Assembly: GCA_964348395.1 (NCBI GenBank) | Contig: CAYGCK010000002.1 | Span: forward strand, 12,729 to 76,728 | Direction: 5' to 3' | Length of the DNA stretch: 64,000 bases | DNA from: an uncultured Candidatus Saccharibacteria bacterium | GTDB taxonomy: Bacteria; Patescibacteriota; WWE3; 9FT-COMBO-53-11 | Shown: piece after piece, positions 47,259 through 58,375 of the stretch | Layout of the letters: every line of letters starts with the position of its first letter | Position numbering within the stretch: the stretch's first letter is position 1 | The notes under the pieces: model-generated | Told to the model about the DNA's origin: nothing | The model's database searches: none | The model's input: only the letters and a program-made list of their open reading frames with translations | Program-made: the position numbers and the translations under genes

Positions 47259-47337
47259 GGTCCCGTGGTGTAGTCTGGTCTAACACGCCTGATTGTCAAT
47301 CAGGAGATCGCCGGTTCAAATCCGGTCGGGACCGCCA
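47259..47337 (+). tRNA. tRNA-Asp (anticodon GTC)
   Basis: Acceptor GGTCCCG/CGGGACC; anticodon arm CCTGA-TTGTCAA-TCAGG; T-loop TTCAAAT; CCA encoded; long (11-nt) D-loop. Confidence 0.8.
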
Positions 47338-47338
47338 G

Positions 47339-47412
47339 GCGGGTATAGTTGAGTGGCTCAATGCCACCTTCCCAAGGTGGAGACACGGGTTCAATTCCCG
47401 TTACCCGCTCCA
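47339..47412 (+). tRNA. tRNA-Gly (anticodon CCC)
   Basis: Acceptor GCGGGTA/TACCCGC; anticodon arm CCACC-TTCCCAA-GGTGG; T-loop TTCAATT; CCA encoded. Starts 1 nt after tRNA-Asp. Confidence 0.85.
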
Positions 47413-47435
47413 AATTATTTCCTGTTACTATTTCA

Positions 47436-49214
47436 TTGGTGGAAGGTATCAAATTCTCAAATATCTCGATCGCAAAAGCGCTTAGTGAGGTCGCAGCGGC
47501 CTACGAGGTTAAGGGGGAGAACCGCTTTAAGATTAGAGCCTATAATACCGCGGCAGATTCTGTGGAGCACGCGACGAGCGAGGTTAAAGATCTTTGGGAG
47601 GAGGGCAAGCTCGACGAGTTACCAGGGATAGGGGAGAGCATTTCCTCTCACCTCGACGAATACTTTCGCACCGGGCGGGTGAAGCATTTTGAGGAAGTTA
47701 AAGAGGATCTCCCGGCCGGTATGTTTGAGATTTTCGGTCTTGAGGGGGTGGGTCCGAAGCGCGCTTTCCGTTTGTCCGAGGAACTCGGGGTAAAAAGCGT
47801 GGAGGGCTTATACAAAGCGGCGCAGGAGGGTAAGATAGCAGACCTTGAGGGGTTTGGAGAAAAGAGTCAGGAGCAGATAGTTAAGGCTATAGAGCGAAAA
47901 AGCAGAGAGCAGATGAGAACCCCACTGCCCATAGCGTTTTCTTTGGCGGAACGTCTTCTTGAGAAGATTCTAAAATTCCCCAGAGTTTCCCGTGCGGACC
48001 CTTTGGGATCCTTGAGAAGGATGGTCGCAACCGTCGGCGACGTCGATATCGGCGTTGCCACGACAAAGCCTGAGGAGACAATCGAACGTTTCGTCAAACT
48101 TCCCGAGGTGGGGAGGGTTCTGGCCGCTGGAGGTGCTAAGGCTTCGGTACTTCTCAAGACCGGCCAACAAGTCGATGTAAGAGCTCACGACCCAGAAAGC
48201 TACGGAGCGCTCTTGCAGTATTTCACCGGCTCCAAACAGCACAATATCCACCTTAGAAAAATTGCCAACGCCAAAGGATACACGCTTTCCGAATACGGCA
48301 TCGCCAAGTTCGCCAAAGGTAAAAAAGTAGGTGAGCCGCTGCCGGTTGATAGCGAAGAAGAGTTTTACCGCTTACTTGGTATGCCTTGGATTGCGCCTGA
48401 GCTTCGCGAGGATCAGGGTGAAATAGAGGCGGCTCAACGACAAGCTCAGGGTAAACCCGACAGGTTGCCGGAGCTTGTTGAGCTTAAGGATATTAAAGGT
48501 GAGGTACACGTCCACACCGACAACTCCCCGGATGGTGAGATTCCTGCCGAGGAGCTCGTCAAAAGGGCCGTGGGTCTAGGGTACGAGTTTATCGGTATCG
48601 CCGACCACTCTCCGTCGGTCCACACCCGCGGAAGGGAAGGTGCAAGGCGTGAGATATTAAAACGAAAAAAAGAGGTTGAAAGGTTGCGAAAGAAATTCAA
48701 AAGAAGGATCGAAATTTTTTTCGGAGCGGAAACCAATATAGACGCCACGGGAAAAATGGCGCTCCCCAACGAGCTTCTAAAGCTACATGAGTTTATAGTT
48801 GCCTCGATTCATACCTCCTTCGATCAACCCCGGAGCGAGATTACGCAGCGGCTGGTCTCGGCGCTCAGGAACCCGTACGTCAATATGATCGGCCACCCAA
48901 CTGGAAGACTCTTGACCATGCGCGAAGCTTACGAGGCCGACTGGGATAGGGTTTTCAAAATTACCAAGGAGGAGGGTAAGATTATGGAGATAAACGCTTA
49001 TCCGCTTCGATTAGATTTGCCTGACAGGATAGTAAAAACGGCAAAGGATATGGGTATTCCAATTGTTATAAGTACGGACGCGCATAGGGTGGAACACCTG
49101 GAGAATTTGAGATTCGGAGTGTCTGTCGCAAGGCGGGGATGGTGTGAGAAAAAGGATATTTTGACAACCCGCGGCGCTTCGGAATTTGCTAAACTTTTTA
49201 GGATAAGGAGGTGA
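47436..49214 (+). CDS. DNA polymerase X family protein with C-terminal PHP 3'-5' exonuclease/phosphoesterase domain (PolX)
   Basis: TTG/GTG start at 47436/47439, after tRNA-Gly. PolX helix-hairpin-helix N-terminus IAKALSEVAAAYEVKGENRFKIRAYNTAADSV. PHP motifs VHVHTDNSPDG...HTSF...STDAH. The long ATG frame from 47349 overlaps the tRNA. Confidence 0.8.
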   Translation: MVEGIKFSNISIAKALSEVAAAYEVKGENRFKIRAYNTAADSVEHATSEVKDLWEEGKLDELPGIGESISSHLDEYFRTGRVKHFEEVKEDLPAGMFEIFGLEGVGPKRAFRLSEELGVKSVEGLYKAAQEGKIADLEGFGEKSQEQIVKAIERKSREQMRTPLPIAFSLAERLLEKILKFPRVSRADPLGSLRRMVATVGDVDIGVATTKPEETIERFVKLPEVGRVLAAGGAKASVLLKTGQQVDVRAHDPESYGALLQYFTGSKQHNIHLRKIANAKGYTLSEYGIAKFAKGKKVGEPLPVDSEEEFYRLLGMPWIAPELREDQGEIEAAQRQAQGKPDRLPELVELKDIKGEVHVHTDNSPDGEIPAEELVKRAVGLGYEFIGIADHSPSVHTRGREGARREILKRKKEVERLRKKFKRRIEIFFGAETNIDATGKMALPNELLKLHEFIVASIHTSFDQPRSEITQRLVSALRNPYVNMIGHPTGRLLTMREAYEADWDRVFKITKEEGKIMEINAYPLRLDLPDRIVKTAKDMGIPIVISTDAHRVEHLENLRFGVSVARRGWCEKKDILTTRGASEFAKLFRIRR

Positions 49215-49220
49215 TATTTT

Positions 49221-49772
49221 TTGAATTGGATTTATATTGTTTTGGGAATCGTTGGCGCGCTAGGGATTTTTCTTTTTTGGCTCTATAACACCCTTGTTCG
49301 TTCCCGTACTCGGGTTGAAGAAGCCTGGAGCCATATCGACGTCCAGCTAAAGCGACGTGCGGATCTCATACCAAATTTGGTCGAGACGGTCAAGGGATAC
49401 GCCAAACACGAGAAGGGGGTTTTTGAGAATGTTACCAAAGCCCGTTCCGCCATACTTTCGGCCAAGACCGTTAAAGAGTCGGAGGATGCGGATAACATGC
49501 TAACCGGTGCCCTCAAAACACTTTTCGCGGTGGCTGAGAATTATCCCGAACTTAAGGCCTCAGAGAATTTCAAGGAGCTTCAGGATGAGCTTTCCGATAC
49601 GGAAAACAAGATCGCCTACGCCCGACAGTTCTACAACGGTAACGTTCGCGACTTTAACATTCTGATTAAGAGTTTTCCGAACGTGCTTCTCTCATCCGCG
49701 CTGGGATTCAAACCGGCTGAGTTCTTCGAAGCCGAGGCCGGTGAGCGGGAAAAGCCGGAGGTGAAGTTTTAG
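49221..49772 (+). CDS. lemA: LemA family protein
   Basis: N-terminal TM plus [44 protein letters not shown]. Confidence 0.85.
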
Positions 49773-49805
49773 GGTATAGCGACTAGGGTTTAGGGTATAG
49801 GAATG
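49770..49805. repeat. intergenic spacer made entirely of heptanucleotide repeats (TAGGGTA-like x5) from the lemA stop to the htpX start
   Basis: tagggta tagcgac tagggtt tagggta taggaATG. Each unit starts with TAG, so a stop is present in all three frames. Confidence 0.75.
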
Positions 49806-50678
49806 ACGCTTTACTCGCAAATCGCCGCCAATCGCCGCAGGACGTTCTTCTTGTTCTTTTTTACATTTCTGATAATTGTCGCGTTAGGCTATATTTTTGG
49901 GATTTATTTTGAAGACCCTTACTTTGGGGCTCTGGCGGCTTTTGTCTTCACTATTTTCTATTCTCTCTTTTCTTATTATTTCTCCTCCAGCATAGTTCTG
50001 GCGATTTCCGGCGCCAGACCAATTGATAAAAAGGATAATCCTTATCTTTATCGAATGGTCGAAAATTTGTGTATCGGTGCGGGATTGCCCAGACCTAAGA
50101 TCTACATCATTGAGGAGCAAGCGATGAACGCTTTCGCCACCGGTAGAGGTCCCAAAAATTCCGCTGTAGCGGTGACTAGAGGGTTACTCGAGAATTTAGA
50201 GAATGAGGAACTCGAGGGTGTTTTAGCCCACGAGCTTTCCCACATTCAAAATTATGACATTCGGATAATGACGCTGGCGGCCGTTATGGCCGGGGCGGTA
50301 GTGATGTTGGCGGATGTATTTTTGCGAAGCACCAGGTTTGGGAGCTCGCGAAGCCGTCGAGGGGCAGGGGGGGTTCTTATTCTTGTGGGGTTTCTCTTGG
50401 CGCTTCTTTCGCCGATTTTCGCCCAGCTAATCAAGCTGGCGATCTCCCGTCAGCGGGAGTTTTTGGCCGACTCCTCTGGTGCTCTTTTGACCCGCTATCC
50501 TGAAGGATTGGCTCGGGCGCTCGAGAAGATATCGGCCGATAAGACGCCTCTCAAGCACGTTTCGGAGGCGACGGCCCATCTTTATATCAAAAACCCATTA
50601 GGTAGGGGTTTTTGGTCAGGGCTTTTTGCCACCCATCCTCCGGTTGGGGAGAGAATAAGACGGCTTCGTGCGGTGTGA
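49803..50678 (+). CDS. htpX: M48-family zinc metalloprotease HtpX homologue
   Basis: Two N-terminal TM helices. HELSHIQNYD (HExxH) and the downstream E of the M48 motif. The LemA-HtpX pair is a common operon. Confidence 0.85.
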   Translation: MTLYSQIAANRRRTFFLFFFTFLIIVALGYIFGIYFEDPYFGALAAFVFTIFYSLFSYYFSSSIVLAISGARPIDKKDNPYLYRMVENLCIGAGLPRPKIYIIEEQAMNAFATGRGPKNSAVAVTRGLLENLENEELEGVLAHELSHIQNYDIRIMTLAAVMAGAVVMLADVFLRSTRFGSSRSRRGAGGVLILVGFLLALLSPIFAQLIKLAISRQREFLADSSGALLTRYPEGLARALEKISADKTPLKHVSEATAHLYIKNPLGRGFWSGLFATHPPVGERIRRLRAV

Positions 50679-50709
50679 CGGACCCTATGAGTTATGATAG
50701 TTTAAGAAG

Positions 50710-51003
50710 ATGCCGAAGTCTCCCAAACTCGATGTCAATTACGTTGCCCATCTTGCGCGTTTGCACCTAACACCTTCCGAAAAGAAGAGGTTCTCAAAGC
50801 AGCTCGAGGATGTTTTAGCTCACATAGAGCAGCTCTCCAAACTCGATTTATCCAAAGTTCCCCCGACCTTCCAGACCACCGGAGCAGGTGACGTGTTTCG
50901 CGACGACGAGGTTGACAAGAGGCGGACCCTGACGTCCCGTGCGGCTCTTTCTAACGCGGCGGCAAAGAAGGGTTCGTTTTTCCGTATTCCAAAAATCCTA
51001 TGA
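50710..51003 (+). CDS. gatC: Asp-tRNA(Asn)/Glu-tRNA(Gln) amidotransferase subunit C
   Basis: VNYVAHLARLHLTPSEKKRFSKQLEDVLAHIEQLSKLDLSKVPPT. Confidence 0.85.
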   Translation: MPKSPKLDVNYVAHLARLHLTPSEKKRFSKQLEDVLAHIEQLSKLDLSKVPPTFQTTGAGDVFRDDEVDKRRTLTSRAALSNAAAKKGSFFRIPKIL

Positions 51004-52406
51004 GCGATATCTTGAATCTCACTCTTAAAGAGCTTTCATCCGGGGTAAGAGAGGGACGATTTAGTGCTAGTGAAGTTTTGGAGGAGTTTGCTCGTGAGAT
51101 CGAAAGGAAGGAAAGCAAACTCCACGCTTTCATAAGTATTTTTCTTGAGGAGGCAAAGAAGCGCACAAGGGAAACGAAACGTGGGGGTCGGGGAAAGCTC
51201 TTGGGCGTACCACTCGCCGTAAAGGATAATATCGTAACCCGCGGACTCCGCACGACGGCGGGTTCAAAGATTATAGAAAATTTTATCCCTCAGTACGACG
51301 CAACCGTGGTCTCTAAGCTGCTGGGTGAGGGTGCGATTATTTTGGGTAAAACCAACATGGACGAGTTCGCTATGGGCTCCTCCACCGAAAACTCTGCCTT
51401 TGGGCCGACAAGAAATCCTTACGACCCCAAGCGTGTTCCTGGCGGCTCCTCTGGAGGGTCTGCAGCGGCCGTAGCTTCCCGTATGGTGCCCGCCGCGTTG
51501 GGTACTGATACTGGTGGATCTATCAAGCAGCCGGCGGCGTTTTGTGGGGTAGTGGGGCTGCGACCCACCTACGGGGCGGTGTCGCGTTATGGCGTTATTG
51601 CTTTGACCTCTTCTCTTGACCAGGTGGGGCCTTTGGCTCGCACCGTGGAGGATGTACGCTATCTTTTTTCGGTTATAAGAGGTAGGGATCTTTATGACGC
51701 TACTTCCTGGGAAAACCCAAACCCGACCGAGGGGGTCGAGATTAAAAACCTCCGGGTCGGGCTGCCTAAGGAGTATTTTACGAGCGGCGTTGAAAAGGGG
51801 ATTACCGACCGTATTGGGCAAGTAGCGAAATTTCTTGAAGGCCAGGGCGTTAAGGTTGAGGAAGTTTCTCTTCCGCATACCGAGTATGGAATAGCGGTTT
51901 ACTATATCATCACACCTTCTGAAGTGTCGACGAATTTATCGCGGTTTGACGGCATTCGGTTTGGGTTGCAGGTTCGGCAGAAAGATGTTATTTCTTTGGT
52001 TTCAAAATCCCGAGGGACTGGATTTGGGGAGGAGCCCAAAAGGAGAATTATTCTGGGTACCTTTGCCCTTTCCTCGGGTTACGCCGATAAGTACTACCTT
52101 CGCGCGGCCCGCGCCAGAACGTTAGTGGCGCGCGATTTTGAGCAGGTTTTTAAGAAGGTGGACGCCCTTTTGACACCTACCGCCCCAACAACCGCCTTTA
52201 AAATTGGGGAAAAGAAGGATCCCCTCTCGATGTATATGTCTGATATCTTCACCATTCCGGCGAACTTGGCTGGTTTGCCGGGCTTGTCTGTACCGGTGGG
52301 GGACGTCGGGGGGCTACCGGTTGGTGCGCAGCTTCTGGGACCGAAGTTTTCAGAAAACACGTTGTTTTCTCTCGGCGAGATTGTGGAGGGCGGAACATGG
52401 TCTTAG
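51000..52406 (+). CDS. gatA: Glu-tRNA(Gln)/Asp-tRNA(Asn) amidotransferase subunit A (amidase)
   Basis: Amidase signature GGSSGGSAAAVASRMVPAALGTDTGGSIKQPAAFCG. Confidence 0.9.
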   Translation: MSDILNLTLKELSSGVREGRFSASEVLEEFAREIERKESKLHAFISIFLEEAKKRTRETKRGGRGKLLGVPLAVKDNIVTRGLRTTAGSKIIENFIPQYDATVVSKLLGEGAIILGKTNMDEFAMGSSTENSAFGPTRNPYDPKRVPGGSSGGSAAAVASRMVPAALGTDTGGSIKQPAAFCGVVGLRPTYGAVSRYGVIALTSSLDQVGPLARTVEDVRYLFSVIRGRDLYDATSWENPNPTEGVEIKNLRVGLPKEYFTSGVEKGITDRIGQVAKFLEGQGVKVEEVSLPHTEYGIAVYYIITPSEVSTNLSRFDGIRFGLQVRQKDVISLVSKSRGTGFGEEPKRRIILGTFALSSGYADKYYLRAARARTLVARDFEQVFKKVDALLTPTAPTTAFKIGEKKDPLSMYMSDIFTIPANLAGLPGLSVPVGDVGGLPVGAQLLGPKFSENTLFSLGEIVEGGTWS

Positions 52407-52798
52407 ACTTTCTTTTCGGGAGAAAAGAAAAGAAGGTAGTAAGGACGACCGTGGGGGTGCTCAAGCCCTACGATAGGGATTATATAAAGGGGGAATGGAC
52501 CAGGGTCGAGGAGTTGGTTTCGACCGCCCGTCCTAGCGCTTTTAAGGAAGCGGTTATCTTGGCAGATAAACTTTTAGATTACGCGCTTGCACAAATTTCC
52601 TCGGGCGAGACCATGGGGGAGAGGTTAAAAAACGCCGCACCCGCTTTTTCTCGGGATATTTACCAAGGACTTTGGGACGCCCATAAGGCGCGAAACGCTC
52701 TGGTTCATGAGGCGCAATTTGATTTAACGACCGCTCTGGCAAAGGATGTTCTGGCTAAATTTAAGAAAGGCTTTATGGAGCTGGGGGTCAGAATATGA
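52397..52798 (+). CDS. hypothetical 133-aa protein inserted between gatA and gatB; C-terminal Rx4HE motif (HEPN-like?)
   Basis: GGAGGG RBS 7 nt upstream; overlaps the gatA stop and the gatB start (ATGA). Helical C-terminal half contains KARNALVHEAQF (R-x4-H-E). No confident family assignment. Confidence 0.55.
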   Translation: MVLDFLFGRKEKKVVRTTVGVLKPYDRDYIKGEWTRVEELVSTARPSAFKEAVILADKLLDYALAQISSGETMGERLKNAAPAFSRDIYQGLWDAHKARNALVHEAQFDLTTALAKDVLAKFKKGFMELGVRI

Positions 52799-54135
52799 GA
52801 AAACCGGAAACTGGAAACCGGAAACTGGAAACTGATTACCGACCCGTCATCGGACTGGAGGTCCACGTGCAGGCTAAGACCCGCTCGAAGATGTTTTGCG
52901 GGTGTCCTGCCGATACTTTTGGAAAAAAGCCCAACTCGGTCGTGTGTCCCGTTTGTCTGGGTTTGCCGGGGGCGATACCCGTTCCCAACAGGGCGGCTAT
53001 TGAGAAGACAATTGCTCTGGCCAAAGCTTTGGGGTGTCGGATAACCAAGTTCTCTCAATTCGAGCGCAAAAACTACTTTTATCCTGATTTGCCCAAGGGG
53101 TTTCAGATCAGCCAGTACGAACACCCTATCGGGGTTGAGGGTAAACTTCTAGGATTTGCGGTGAGCCGCGTCCATTTAGAGGAAGACACCGGCAAGCTTC
53201 TTCACGAGGGCGGGCAAACGTTTATTGACTTCAACCGTTCCGGCGTTCCGCTGGTTGAAATAGTGACCGAACCCGAATTCGAAGATCCGGCCCGGGTGTC
53301 CGAGTTTCTAAAGGAACTTCGACTTCTGGTCGTAAACGCCGACATCTCTGACGCCGATATGGAAAAAGGTTCTATGCGGCTTGAGGCCAACGTTTCGCTA
53401 AAGAAATCGGGGTCGAAAAAACTACCGGGCTACAAGGTCGAGCTCAAAAATATCAATTCCTTTGCTTTCCTTAAGAAAGCTCTCGAGGTTGAAATAGAAC
53501 GACAAGGTAAGCTTCTAAAAAGCGGGAAACAACCTCACCAGGAAACCCGCGGGTTTGACCCCAAGCGCGGAGTGACGGTAGCGCAGCGCACTAAAGAGGA
53601 GGCGTTTGACTACCGGTATTTCCCCGAACCGGACATCCCGCCGTTGGAGAAAATCTTAGTTCAAAAAGTTACGCGGACAAAGACAATTACTGCAGATGCC
53701 ATACTTGTGGAATCGCCAGAAAAGATTCGCGAGAAGTATCGCTCTCAAGGCCTCTCGGCTCAATACACCGAGGTCTTAGTTGGAAATCCTAAGTTGGCGA
53801 GGATTTTTGAGGAGGTGAGTGCCAAAATTCCGGCGGATGAGGCGGCAAACATCATAGTAAACAGGCGGTTTGGTGATCCTCTTCGACTCGGCGTCAAAAA
53901 ACTCATAGCGGCTTATGAGAAGGAGAGGAAAAAAGAAGTTTTATCCGGGGATAAACTTTTACCCACCGCCAAACGCGTAGTCGCCGACAACCCGCGTGCG
54001 GTTTCCGACTACAGACAAGGGAAAACCGCCGCTTTAAAGTTTCTTTTGGGACAGCTTATGAGGGAAACCGACGGTAAAATGGATCCTAAGGTGGGAGAGT
54101 TGATACTCAAGAAACTTTGCGATGCCAGAACTTAA
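52795..54135 (+). CDS. gatB: Asp-tRNA(Asn)/Glu-tRNA(Gln) amidotransferase subunit B
   Basis: YRPVIGLEVHVQ...MFCGC N-terminal core; GatB/YqeY C-terminal domain. There is a 13-aa N-terminal extension encoded by heptad repeats. Confidence 0.9.
   Translation: MRKPETGNRKLETDYRPVIGLEVHVQAKTRSKMFCGCPADTFGKKPNSVVCPVCLGLPGAIPVPNRAAIEKTIALAKALGCRITKFSQFERKNYFYPDLPKGFQISQYEHPIGVEGKLLGFAVSRVHLEEDTGKLLHEGGQTFIDFNRSGVPLVEIVTEPEFEDPARVSEFLKELRLLVVNADISDADMEKGSMRLEANVSLKKSGSKKLPGYKVELKNINSFAFLKKALEVEIERQGKLLKSGKQPHQETRGFDPKRGVTVAQRTKEEAFDYRYFPEPDIPPLEKILVQKVTRTKTITADAILVESPEKIREKYRSQGLSAQYTEVLVGNPKLARIFEEVSAKIPADEAANIIVNRRFGDPLRLGVKKLIAAYEKERKKEVLSGDKLLPTAKRVVADNPRAVSDYRQGKTAALKFLLGQLMRETDGKMDPKVGELILKKLCDART
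52801..52835. repeat. heptanucleotide tandem repeat (AAACCGG/AAACTGG)x5 in the gatB 5' coding leader
   Basis: aaaccgg aaactgg aaaccgg aaactgg aaactga immediately after the ATG, encoding KPETGNRKLETD. Confidence 0.8.
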
Positions 54136-55912
54136 ACTCCTTGAGGAGAAAACTAGCTACGAGCTAATAGAAAGCCGGGACAGGATGGGAGAGGTTGTTA
54201 CCGAGCTGAAAAAAATCCCCACCTTGGCTGTGGATTTGGAGGGAACGAGTCTAGACCCTCATAAAGCAAATCTCCTGCTTTTCCAGGTAGCTACTCCAGG
54301 GAAAGCTTATATTTTTGACGCGCGAAGGGTCGATCTGACACCTTTGGCCGATATCCTATCTAGTAAAAAAATATTGAAAATAGCTCAAAACGCAAAGTTC
54401 GATTACGGTATGCTTATGGCTCAAACCGGTATGGAGCTTGCAAACATATTCGATACGTTTTTGGCGGAACGAGTTCTTACTACTGGGATCTCCAGGGAAA
54501 ACTCACTTGAAGCTATTGCGCAAAAGTATCTGGGGGTGCAGCTTGAAAAACAGGTTCGCGAAACCTTTATGAAACACACACGAGAGTTTTCCAAGAAACA
54601 ACTGGAGTACGCGGCGGCTGACGTTTTGGTTCTCTTTCCAATTTATGAGGTACAGAAGAAATCACTTAAGAAAGAAGGACTCGAGGATATTGCTAAGGTC
54701 GAGTTCGATCTGGTCCCTACGGTTGCTGAGATGGAGCTTAGAGGCTTTATGGTTGACGTTAAAAAATGGCGAGAGGTGATCGAAGATTACAAGAAAAAAG
54801 CCGTGGAGATTGATCAAAAGATACAAAATGACTTGAGACCGCACTTTGCGCATAGTCAGAAGGATCTCTTTGGAAACCACGCGGACGTCGTCAACCTAAA
54901 CTCGCCCGCCCAAATCCTCAACGCTTTTCGGAAGGTGGGGCTCGACCTTCCTTCAACGGGGGAAGGGATACTTTCCCAGTACGACCATCCTTTGGCGAAG
55001 CTACTTCTTGAATACCGCAAATACGAGAAAATCATAACCGCGTTTGGGGAGAATTTGCTCTCCAAAATCGATAAAAAAACCGGGCGGGTACACCCCGATT
55101 ACATGCAAATTGGGGCGGATACTGGGAGGTTTGCCTGCTCTAACCCAAACCTTCAGCAGATTCCTGCCGACTCGCTTTTTCGCGGTTGTTTCATCGCGCC
55201 TAAGGGCTATAAACTCGTCGTCGCGGACTACTCCCAAATTGAGCTTCGCATTCTAGCCGAGTTGTCGCGCGATTCGGTTTTCGTTGAGGCTTTTAAGAAG
55301 GATCAGGACCTTCATACCCTAACCGCCTCGCAAATGTTTGGAGTTCCGATTGAAAAAGTCGATAAGGGAAAGAGATTTCAGGCCAAATCGATAAACTTCG
55401 GTTTGATGTACGGACGAGGCGCGCACTCGTTAGCCGTACAGCTTGGGGTTTCGGATGATGAAGCGAGGAAACTCCTAGATCGCTACTTTAAAAAATACAG
55501 TAGAGTTAGGAGCTGGCTTGACAGGGTAGCAAAAGAGGCGGTTCGTCTGGGGTATAGCAAAACCATAGGCGGTCGCAAGAGATACTATCAGCGGATTAAC
55601 CCAGGGGATCCCGGATATGAAAGACAGGTTGCTTATATTGAACGGCAAGGCAAGAACACGCCGATTCAAGGGACGTCGGCCGATATGACCAAGGTGGCCT
55701 TGGTTTACGTACGCGATAGAATAAAAAAGGAAGGTTTGGATTCCACACCTATACATACCGTGCACGACGAGATTGTAGTTGAGGCAAAAGAAGGACAGGC
55801 AAAGAAAACTGCTAAGATTTTATCTGAGGAGATGATGCGAGCAGGGAAGAAATTCTTAAAAGTAGTTCCGGTAAAGGTAGACGTGGTTGTTTCTGATATT
55901 TGGGAGCATTAG
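54122..55912 (+). CDS. polA: DNA polymerase I-like (family A) with 3'-5' exonuclease domain, no 5'-3' nuclease domain
   Basis: 596 aa. Exo motif LAVDLEG / YAAADV. Pol motifs A-C (…RFQAKSINFGLMYG…, VHDEIVVE). Confidence 0.8.
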   Translation: MPELKLLEEKTSYELIESRDRMGEVVTELKKIPTLAVDLEGTSLDPHKANLLLFQVATPGKAYIFDARRVDLTPLADILSSKKILKIAQNAKFDYGMLMAQTGMELANIFDTFLAERVLTTGISRENSLEAIAQKYLGVQLEKQVRETFMKHTREFSKKQLEYAAADVLVLFPIYEVQKKSLKKEGLEDIAKVEFDLVPTVAEMELRGFMVDVKKWREVIEDYKKKAVEIDQKIQNDLRPHFAHSQKDLFGNHADVVNLNSPAQILNAFRKVGLDLPSTGEGILSQYDHPLAKLLLEYRKYEKIITAFGENLLSKIDKKTGRVHPDYMQIGADTGRFACSNPNLQQIPADSLFRGCFIAPKGYKLVVADYSQIELRILAELSRDSVFVEAFKKDQDLHTLTASQMFGVPIEKVDKGKRFQAKSINFGLMYGRGAHSLAVQLGVSDDEARKLLDRYFKKYSRVRSWLDRVAKEAVRLGYSKTIGGRKRYYQRINPGDPGYERQVAYIERQGKNTPIQGTSADMTKVALVYVRDRIKKEGLDSTPIHTVHDEIVVEAKEGQAKKTAKILSEEMMRAGKKFLKVVPVKVDVVVSDIWEH

Positions 55913-55960
55913 CAGAGGAGCTTTGACTTTGCTAAGGTGTTCAACTAAAATTCTAAAGGA

Positions 55961-58027
55961 ATGATTTGCCAAAATTGTGGAAAAAGACAAGCGGTTTTTC
56001 AGACCCACCATCTCGTTGATGGTCGGCCCACCATAATTTATCTTTGTGAGGTATGTGCCGAAGAGGTTCGCTCTGGAGGTCGGCGGACCTCGACGCTAGA
56101 TCGTTACGGACGAAACATCTCCGCCTTGGCAGAGAAGGGTAAGCTCGATCCGGTGATTGGGAGGGGGGAGGAGATTAATCGTGTAATCCATGTTCTCTCC
56201 AGAAGAACCAAGAACAACCCCGTTTTGATAGGGGACCCAGGAGTCGGCAAGACCGCAATTGTGGAGGGGTTAGCGCAAAGAATTATTGAAGGCAACGTCC
56301 CAGAACCTTTGCTTGGGAAGAGAATAGTAGCCCTCGATCTTGCTCTTATGCTTGCCGGCGCATCCCACCGCGGGGAATTTGAGGAGCGTATGAAGAAAGC
56401 AATTGAGGAGGTTACCGCTGCCCGTGGTGAGATAGTTCTTTTTATAGACGAGCTTCATACGGTAGTTGGGGCGGGTGCGGCGCAAGGTGCAATCGACGCC
56501 TCCAATATGCTTAAACCCCCGCTTGCCCGAGGTGAGCTCCAGTGTATTGGCGCAACCACACTTGACGAGTATCGACGGTATATCGAAAAAGATGGTGCCT
56601 TGGAACGGCGTTTCCAGCCGGTCATGGTCACGGAACCGACGCAGGGGGAGACCCTCGATATTTTGCGCGGTCTTAGGCCAAATTACGAGGACCATCATAG
56701 GGTGCGTTTAACCGATGGTGCGCTAGGTGCTGCGGTTGAACTTTCCGACCGCTACATTACCGACCGTTTTCTTCCCGATAAGGCCATCGACCTTTTGGAT
56801 GAAACCTCCGCCAAAAAGCGTTTGGAATCCGTCGGTTACACATCTAATAATAAGGCGGATAAAATCTCCGAAGAGCTTACGCGGTTAAAGGGTAAATCAC
56901 GCAAGACCTTGGCCGAAATGGAGCGTATCGAAGAGTTAACCGCACTAAAAGGTGGACAAGTAGATGAGCAGGAGCTTGCGCTTGAGAATATTCCCGAGGT
57001 TACCGCCCAAGACGTTGCTAAAACTGTGTCTAAGATTACCGGGATTCACGTTGAGGATATATCAACCGACGAGAGGAAACGCCTCATGGATCTTGAGAAG
57101 AAACTCCACGAACGGATCGTTGGGCAGGATGAGGCCGTGAAGGCCGTCTCATCTGCCATCAGACGCGCACGCGCAGGGCTTAAGGATCCAAACCGACCGG
57201 TTGGTTCGTTTATCTTTCTTGGTCCAACCGGGGTTGGAAAAACGGAACTTGCTAAGGCTCTTGCCGAAGCGCTTTACGGAGATGAGGATTCGATGGTCAG
57301 GTTGGATATGTCAGAATACGCGGAGCGCCATACCGTCTCTCGGATGATCGGTTCTCCTCCTGGGTATGTGGGGTACGAGGACGCCGGACAACTTACGGAG
57401 GCTGTTCGCCGGAAACCCTTCTCGGTTGTACTTTTTGATGAAATCGAAAAAGCGCATCCCGAGGTCTTTAACATTCTCCTCCAAATTCTGGAGGATGGGC
57501 GTTTGACCGACGCTCACGGACGGACGGTCGATTTCAAAAATACGGTTTTAATCATGACTTCAAATGTTGGAACTAGCGCGATATCTGCTAAGGCGGTTGG
57601 GTTCGGCGAGGGCGCTAAAAAGAAGGATTACGAGGAGCTTAAAGAAGGGCTTCTAGGGGATCTCCAAAAGAGCTTTAGACCAGAATTCTTAAACAGAATA
57701 GACGAGATAATTGTCTTTCACCCTCTAAGTGAGAAGCATGTTAGGAAGATCGCAGACATTCTCATCGAAAGGAGCAAAAAACTTCTGGAATCCCAAGGAA
57801 TAAGCTTGGACGTAACAAAAAGAGCGCGAAACTTTCTTGCCGAGCGCGGTTTTGATCCAGAGCTAGGAGCCCGTCCTCTAAAGCGCTTGATCCAAAAAGA
57901 GATAGAAAACCCAATTTCAAACGGAATAGTTTCGGGTGACTACAGGAAAGGGGACACGGTTGGATTTGACTTTACGGGTGGTAAAACAACCTTTCAGATC
58001 AAAAAGCGCGTCCCCGTAAAGGTTTAG
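55961..58027 (+). CDS. clpC: Clp/Hsp100 double-AAA+ unfoldase (ClpC/ClpA-like) with N-terminal ClpX-type C4 zinc ribbon in place of Clp_N repeats
   Basis: N-terminus [11 protein letters not shown]...[11 protein letters not shown]1 Walker [17 protein letters not shown]2 Walker [23 protein letters not shown] loop. 688 aa. Confidence 0.8.
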
Positions 58028-58030
58028 AGG

Positions 58031-58375
58031 ATGGAAAAAAAGCCCAAAGCCAAAAAGAAAAAAGAAGTTAAAAAGCCCAAAGTCCAAGAACCCGGGGAGG
58101 GATACAGGCCGGGGGACGTTGTGCGAGTTAGTTTCAAGGTGAGGGAGGAGGGAAAGGAAAGGGTCCAACCCTTTGAGGGTATCTTGATTGCAAAACGCGG
58201 CGAGGGACCCTCCAAGACAATTACCGTCAGAAAGATGGGGACTGCGGGGGTGGGTGTGGAGCGTATTTTTCCTGTTAATTCCCCCAAGGTTGAAAAGATT
58301 GAGGTGGTCAAGAAAGGTAAAACACGCCGCGCTAAATTATATTTCGTTCGAGAAAAACCAACACTTAAGGTTTAG
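58031..58375 (+). CDS. rplS: 50S ribosomal protein L19
   Basis: [61 protein letters not shown], with a Lys-rich N-terminal extension. Confidence 0.9.

Follow-up and report, generated by a model that had tools for sequence, protein, structure and literature searches.

To our knowledge, bacterial HEPN domains are known almost only from conflict, that is, from toxin–antitoxin (TA) modules, abortive infection, CRISPR effectors and anticodon nucleases. HEPN enzymes that cut tRNA are well documented, examples being HepT and Cas13. Here, we examined a gene for a predicted HEPN-fold protein that lies in the operon of the amidotransferase GatCAB, in a 64,000-nucleotide (nt) stretch (hereafter, the window) of contig CAYGCK010000002.1 from an uncultured Candidatus Saccharibacteria bacterium of the WWE3 lineage. 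The gene, an open reading frame (ORF) of 133 amino acids (aa) between gatA and gatB, is referred to as X. It was found to belong to an unnamed family that spreads across the Candidate Phyla Radiation (CPR; Patescibacteria), shares a catalytic-type R-N-x3-H motif and keeps its place between gatA and gatB. All positions are those of the whole window, except that those given with L-numbered loci (L001, etc.) are the relatives' own coordinates.

The structures closest to X are those of HepT toxins (Shewanella oneidensis SO_3166, PDB 5yep, 6m6w and 7bxo; the Aphanizomenon HEPN toxin, 7ae2). The Tyr in the RX4HXY motif of HepT is the site AMPylated by MntA. X differs from HepT in that it has neither an MNT partner gene nor the AMPylation Tyr (its motif being RNx3H[E/D]x), has no DUF86 match, is not mobile, resides in a housekeeping operon and often carries an N-terminal transmembrane (TM) helix. 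Another described family is DUF4145 (PF13643, Pfam clan CL0291), a HEPN family in which the motif is mostly conserved, and whose name the language model ProtNLM gave to the counterpart of X in Southlakia epibionticum. Typically, DUF4145 occurs as a fusion to restriction endonuclease or helicase modules in restriction–modification (R-M) or defence contexts, whereas X stands alone in gatCAB; membership of X in this family was not supported, as none of 42 diverse members matched PF13643 by hmmscan even at E ≤ 10. In a further family close to X, the canonical His of the motif is typically lacking, whereas X has kept both of its histidines, and no match between the two was found at the sequence level.

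Precedents for HEPN RNases in core RNA processing, with sites of the R-N-x3-H type, are found in the eukaryotic Las1, in the KEN domains of Ire1 and RNase L, and in the membrane-anchored C6orf70 family, and some of these enzymes are anchored by a single TM helix. However, all of them are eukaryotic and multidomain and have no link to an amidotransferase, and their homology to X does not go beyond the superfamily. As for the amidotransferase, GatC and the yeast mitochondrial GatF are small proteins that are encoded or assembled with GatA and GatB, and X, encoded between gatA and gatB and coupled to both, resembles them in this respect. Nevertheless, neither of the two is a HEPN protein, and GatC is still present beside X in the window.

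The family of X and its place between gatA and gatB

X is a real gene, as judged from a number of homologs and a degree of conservation far above chance. The first search gave 176 homologs, all from Patescibacteria/CPR (WWE3, Saccharibacteria and the generic "Patescibacteria group"), and none of them carried a precomputed Pfam domain. When the X profile was searched against 1.84 billion cluster representatives, 2,701 clusters (50% identity) were found at E ≤ 1e-3, and 1,750 at E ≤ 1e-10; the best 150 of the 2,701 are all small proteins of 71–199 aa. A profile built from the Saccharimonadia versions of X retrieved at least 7,977 clusters at 90% identity. All the named members of the family are Patescibacteria. 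Against the closest relatives of X, the nonsynonymous divergence (dN) is about 0.25, with the synonymous sites saturated.

In the window, the genes at 49–58 kb are all on the + strand, in the order lemA, htpX, gatC, gatA, X, gatB, polA and clpC, and the flanks of X are true gatC, gatA and gatB by Pfam (Table 1). A Shine–Dalgarno sequence lies 6 nt 5′ of the ATG of X, inside the 3′ end of gatA. The gatA stop codon TAG (52404-52406) falls within the start of X, which results in a 10-nt overlap, and the gatB ATG (52795-52797) and the X stop codon TGA (52796-52798) share the tetranucleotide ATGA. A preliminary description of the region, made from the sequence, had reported an extra ORF with its own good ribosome-binding site that overlaps both neighbours, and this layout agrees with it in every point. 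Promoter- and terminator-like matches across 49000-58200 were not above the expectation from shuffled sequences.

To describe the position of X in relatives, 160 loci were used, 80 from species-representative genomes and 80 from metagenomes (queries: distant members with a hydrophobic N-terminus), and their neighbouring genes were scored by tblastn with the window proteins. The arrangement gatA-X-gatB was found in 137 loci; 15 more are consistent with it and are cut by a contig end, and 8 are exceptions. Among the 144 informative loci, namely those with room on both sides of X, the gene thus sits between gatA and gatB in 137. This arrangement persists in many loci where the wider WWE3 synteny (polX-lemA-htpX...polA-clpC) is gone. 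In L050 and L080, the two long exceptions, X stays with gatA, and gatB is located elsewhere.

The junctions are tight. A possible start of X was found within ±20 nt of the gatA stop in 101 of 143 loci, and a possible start of gatB within ±20 nt of the X stop in 72 of 128 loci, the commonest state at both junctions being a 4-nt overlap. These overlapping stops and starts, here and in most relatives, bear out the earlier suggestion that X is co-translated with the amidotransferase genes: as read from the sequences, X is a fourth cistron in gatC-gatA-X-gatB, translationally coupled to its neighbours, and co-expression is predicted. Compared with the window proteins, X has a mean identity of 43.4%, GatA one of 46.6% and GatB one of 42.7%. 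The divergence of X correlates with that of its two neighbours (r = 0.67 and 0.70), and each locus has one copy of X.

Predicted fold and conserved residues

The AlphaFold2 model of X, computed on an alignment of the 42 diverse members (A1), has a pLDDT of 91.7 and a pTM of 0.82, with residues 1-22 disordered. The model is all-alpha, and its helices 2 and 3 are separated by an insert (Table 1); this agrees with the HEPN fold, an up-down bundle of four helices with such an insert in a domain of about 100-120 aa. In the Foldseek search the top ranks were occupied by the HepT/MntA structures of SO_3166 (probability 1.00, TM ~0.6, E ~0.03). The structural neighbours also include YutE, 8xdj, TTHA0636, Dfer_2879, ST0689, TT1696 and HI0074, and, at lower ranks, KNTase, Csm6, the sacsin HEPN domain, Roquin, AbiA and Csx1. 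SO_3166 is likewise 133 aa long; its RX4HXY Tyr is Y104, which places the Arg and His at 97 and 102, and those of X are at 99 and 104.

Two alignments were examined for conserved residues: A1 and a second one (A2) of 16 more distant members with 26-40% identity. The residues A52, D57, G70, G74, E75, R76, L77, Y89, W93, H96, R99, N100 and H104 are invariant in A1, and the same core is kept in A2. In a wider sample, R-N-x3-H was found in 382 of 386 relatives. In these 382 sequences, Asn directly follows Arg and W93 is kept without exception, H96 is kept in 381, and Glu or Asp directly follows the motif His in 366. The motif [E/D]RL[K/R] occurs in 334 of the 386. The signature of the family can be written as GxxxG[E/D]RLK ... 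W-x2-H-[K/R]-x-R-N-x3-H-[E/D]. In X itself, residues 97-108 are KARNALVHEAQF, with the R99 codon at 52691-52693 and the H104 codon at 52706-52708. The R-x4-H-E noticed in the C-terminal half of the ORF in the preliminary description is, therefore, a family-wide character in which the Arg/His pair is practically invariant, and the HEPN guess made from it is supported by the predicted fold.

According to the census of HEPN domains (Anantharaman et al. 2013; PMC3710099), the catalytic ones carry Rx4-6H, N/D/H after the Arg, an upstream conserved acidic residue, typically within Ex3[KR], and an insert between helices 2 and 3. X has the Rx4-6H motif, a polar residue (Asn) after the Arg and the helix 2–3 insert; its acidic residues D57 (in ADK) and E75 (in GERLK) are invariant, with a spacing that is not the canonical Ex3[KR]. 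Together, the model and the motif support the view that X is a HEPN-fold protein with a conserved catalytic-type motif. By analogy with described HEPN RNases, which usually work as dimers with a composite site, it may be a metal-independent RNase-type or RNA-binding module, and its active form is probably a dimer. A non-catalytic subunit is also conceivable, whose HEPN bundle only binds tRNA, a nucleotide or a protein, for example, to tether or organize GatCAB at the membrane. We regard this as improbable: non-catalytic HEPN domains usually lose Rx4-6H (PMC3710099), whereas over 98% of the X family retain the Arg, Asn and His together with another His and the acidic residues, which points to chemistry beyond mere scaffolding.

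N-terminal region

In a sample of 263 relatives with the strict motif H[KR]xRNxxxH, the N-terminus was TM-like in 82 (17-residue Kyte-Doolittle mean ≥ 1.6) and intermediate in 34. In 11 of the 12 Saccharimonadia versions extracted, a clear TM helix precedes a stretch rich in R/K, and the twelfth (L069) has an uncertain start codon. By the positive-inside rule, the HEPN domain of the TM-bearing versions is predicted to face the cytoplasm. In X of the window and in its WWE3 relatives, this region consists of no more than a short, conserved hydrophobic–basic peptide (consensus xxxLxFLFG), which in the window is MVLDFLFGRKEKK. This peptide may be a reduced anchor, as a probable shortened counterpart of the TM helix of the relatives, or else a docking peptide.

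The toxin reading

The preliminary description had envisaged a toxin-like RNase or the remnant of an addiction module. The structural proximity to HepT speaks for a HepT-like toxin, an addiction remnant or a defence gene, as does a marginal match of one distant member to the CARF_HEPN model of PADLOC (E 0.004), apart from which the PADLOC and PHROGs scans of the family gave nothing significant. The only other profile signal was that of HepT-like_2 (E 0.21, one member). Against these points, no MNT or other antitoxin-like gene was found beside X in any of the 160 loci, and Tyr occurs at the H+2 position of RX4HXY in none of the 382 relatives, where A, V, S, T, P and others are found instead. 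X has no DUF86 or HEPN match in Pfam, and tblastn found no relatives on 72,556 plasmids or in 50,697 phage records even at E ≤ 1. Moreover, X is present in a single copy per locus at a fixed place, descends vertically and diverges as much as GatA and GatB do, and its positional counterpart in Southlakia is depleted, not dispensable, in transposon sequencing (Tn-seq). Because the hallmarks of TA modules are absent and the gene is vertical, single-copy and slowly evolving, the idea of a toxin remnant was abandoned; a toxin–antitoxin or defence identity is very improbable.

The positional counterpart in Southlakia epibionticum

Wang et al. (2023, Cell; PMC10633639) list SEML1_0535 of Southlakia epibionticum in their supplementary tables as a 420-bp "hypothetical protein" gene between those of GatA (SEML1_0536) and GatB (SEML1_0534), and it overlaps both. 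It is flagged there as a core family and as Patescibacteria-enriched, with reference to the families of Méheust et al. Its Tn-seq calls are GD/GD/ES, with normalized reads of 126.6→5.9→2.8, which makes it a class II essential gene by the definition of that paper. The ProtNLM label 'DUF4145 domain-containing protein' (score 0.98; Table S2) is a language-model guess. SEML1_0535 does not appear in the main-text discussion, and polarity on gatB is not addressed there (PMC10633639). We matched SEML1_0535 to X by position, size (139 aa), the overlaps with gatA and gatB, fold class and domain limits (26-135). The ECOD group given for it is, we assume, the one that holds HEPN domains.

No description of the X gene came up in the literature searched for HEPN in connection with gatB, Patescibacteria or GatCAB. 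As far as we found, X has been known as an undiscussed row in a supplementary table and as an anonymous CPR-enriched core family, and the combination seen here has gone undescribed: a catalytic-type HEPN protein as a core gene, often membrane-anchored and apparently fitness-critical, between gatA and gatB.

Possible function of X

The following picture is proposed. Over a large part of the CPR, X would be a core gene passed on by vertical descent, and its product a HEPN domain that is small and cytoplasmic and has an intact RNase-type site (W..HK.RN...H[E/D], together with D57 and E75/R76). The N-terminal TM helix found in many lineages would hold this domain at the membrane; in the WWE3-like window genome, the helix would be reduced to the short hydrophobic–basic peptide. 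Stop/start coupling on the gatCAB mRNA would let X be made in step with GatA and GatB. In the transamidation pathway, the protein would be an accessory or quality-control factor and not a TA toxin: a module that cleaves or grips RNA without the need for a metal, and that works on the tRNAs which the amidotransferase uses or produces. We assign a probability of about 40% to such an action on these tRNAs; the RNase activity, the tRNA target, the membrane topology and the physical link to GatCAB are the parts that we infer.

Several observations weigh against this proposal. The link of X to GatCAB is guilt by association only, and a membrane anchor is not an obvious trait for a partner of the soluble GatCAB. 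At the sequence level X matched no family: the Pfam, NCBIfam and PDB searches, per member and by profile, were empty or gave noise (in the PDB, designed repeat proteins and bS20). The Foldseek E-values are weak (0.03), and HEPN membership rests on fold and motif. A conserved RX4H need not be the catalytic site, since R98A and H103A had negligible effect on the RNase activity of the Legionella HepT. With regard to Southlakia, the depletion of SEML1_0535 could stem from polarity on gatB, which is essential, and SEML1_0535 was not matched by sequence, as no named isolate was among the matches listed in the Saccharimonadia-profile search. Finally, no fusion of X to GatA or GatB was found among the top 150 family representatives, and the gatA|gatB junction also hosts unrelated genes (a TM-anchored cyclophilin, a short-chain dehydrogenase/reductase (SDR), MFS transporters, an R-M pair and assorted others).

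The last two observations fit another explanation, in which X is an independent, CPR-specific and often membrane-anchored housekeeping HEPN endoribonuclease for the maturation or decay of mRNA, rRNA or tRNA that hitch-hikes in the operon, its position being an ancient insertion locked by overlapping reading frames instead of a sign of shared function. The evidence from fold and motif is equal for both explanations, and general decay RNases, RNase Y for example, typically have an N-terminal TM anchor. On the other hand, ~95% of informative loci keep X in its place, even those in which no other synteny is left; X remains with gatA in the two long loci from which gatB has moved away; and Southlakia, which bears the counterpart of X, already has RNase Y and RNase J. 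On balance we consider the independent endoribonuclease somewhat less probable than the tRNA-directed accessory factor. The idea that X replaces the membrane RNase Y was rejected, because Southlakia encodes RNase Y and RNase J as well.

A bolder form of the accessory-factor proposal, which we hold to be unlikely, is that in a large part of the CPR the amidotransferase has four components, GatC-GatA-X-GatB. In this system X would be a HEPN subunit of the RNase type, essential and in many cases tethered to the membrane, and would bind or cleave tRNA. Its task might be, for example, to clear or keep in check Glu-tRNAGln and Asp-tRNAAsn, the mis-acylated forms, or to link transamidation with the membrane.

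Features of the region and additional observations

Table 1 Coordinates of the gatC-gatA-X-gatB region in the window
Feature	Position	Strand	Basis or remark
gatC, first cistron of the operon	50710..51003	+	Pfam GatC E 2.3e-17; overlaps gatA start by 4 nt
gatA (amidase subunit)	51000..52406	+	Pfam Amidase E 8.3e-147; TAG stop inside X start
Shine–Dalgarno GGAGG of X	52386..52390	+	Sequence reading
X, predicted 133-aa HEPN-fold protein, unnamed CPR-wide family	52397..52798	+	ORF list of the window; ATG start
N-terminal hydrophobic-then-basic peptide MVLDFLFGRKEKK, residues 1-13	52397..52435	+	Alignment consensus xxxLxFLFG; pLDDT ~50
Predicted HEPN helical bundle, residues 24-128	52466..52780	+	Model helices 24-42, 46-67, 73-79, 86-104, 112-128
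GETMGERLKNA motif, residues 70-80, insert between bundle helices 2 and 3	52604..52636	+	Alignments A1, A2
Predicted active-site helix W93-D-A-H96-K-A-R99-N100-A-L-V-H104-E105	52673..52711	+	R-N-x3-H plus second invariant His; criteria of Anantharaman et al. (2013)
gatB	52795..54135	+	Pfam GatB_N E 7e-102, GatB_Yqey E 6e-13; PDB GatB matches

Many WWE3-type genomes share the gene order polX-lemA-htpX-gatC-gatA-X-gatB-polA-clpC (window 47349-58027; L001-L048), even where protein identity falls to ~40%. A further overlap in the window, of 14 nt (54122-54135), is that between gatB and polA.

Genes inserted at the two junctions of X were also recorded. In one clade, a gene of ~250-270 aa lies between gatA and X, giving gatA-ppi-X-gatB (L129 1259-2044, L130 5198-5926, L135 5069-5890, L136 5179-5964, L138 5162-5926, L140 5329-6087, L158 5320-6078, L050 5086-5868 and L133 762-1523); shorter versions are found in L131 (224 aa) and L127 (216 aa). 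By its motifs (FHRVIKDFMIQGGDP...), the product is a cyclophilin-type peptidyl-prolyl isomerase (PPIase) with an N-terminal TM anchor. Between X and gatB, a gap of ~700 bp exists in L019, L037, L039, L046, L055, L057, L062, L071 and L073; the insert of this WWE3 subset is, by eye, an SDR of ~230 aa. Other inserts at this junction were judged by eye to be an MFS-type transporter (L068 6381-7631, L143 549-1769) and a restriction endonuclease with a DNA methyltransferase (L119 870-2286, L151 6324-7740). Since the X-gatB junction takes up unrelated genes, caution is needed in reading function from the neighbourhood alone. As for the two long exceptions, X lies directly 3′ of gatA in L080 and 3′ of gatA plus a PPIase gene in L050. 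The gene after X encodes, by eye, a ~381-aa protein with an apparent N-terminal signal peptide and a C-terminal hydrophobic segment in L080 (6384-7529), and a ~427-aa protein resembling S1-repeat RNA-binding proteins in L050 (6927-8210).

The gatB gene of the window has peculiarities of its own. Its extreme 5′ end contains a tandem repeat at 52801-52834, with the 7-nt unit AAACTGG in 4.9 copies (or a 14-nt unit in 2.3 copies). The repeat encodes an N-terminal extension (MRKPETGNRKLETD), which appears to be specific to the window genome, as the homology of the relatives' GatB begins at about residue 15. The ATGA overlap of X and gatB was created by this repeat-encoded extension, and a change in copy number would frameshift gatB because the unit is not a multiple of 3. 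GatB of the window (446 aa) aligns to Thermotoga maritima GatB (3al0_B) over residues 15-343 and 378-443. In the intervening part (residues ~343-378), it has ~35 residues vs ~75 in 3al0_B, so that the helical domain is ~40 residues shorter, and the match to the Pfam GatB_Yqey model is confined to the last third of the model. The idea that X compensates for a shortened GatB was rejected, because the shortening is uncorrelated with X: X-bearing Saccharimonadia loci have a GatB of ~480 aa.

Upstream of the operon, tRNA-Asp(GTC) and tRNA-Gly(CCC) lie one base apart at 47259-47412. A 621-aa ORF (47349-49214; PolX/PHP-type by eye) starts inside tRNA-Gly, and its true start must, therefore, be further downstream than 47349.

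Implications

X represents a catalytic-type HEPN protein that behaves as a core gene in thousands of CPR lineages, within the operon of an essential translation enzyme and with a divergence rate like that of this enzyme, and depletion of its positional counterpart in Southlakia is seen in the only Tn-seq data set available for the CPR. Neither Pfam nor NCBIfam has a model of the family, and a named profile would allow thousands of "hypothetical proteins" to be annotated consistently. If the four-component amidotransferase were true, X would be the first bacterial HEPN enzyme with a housekeeping role in aminoacyl-tRNA synthesis. More generally, knowing what X does would explain one of the conserved genes of unknown function by which the CPR is defined, and could bring to light a new step in tRNA quality control or in the indirect synthesis of Gln-tRNA and Asn-tRNA.

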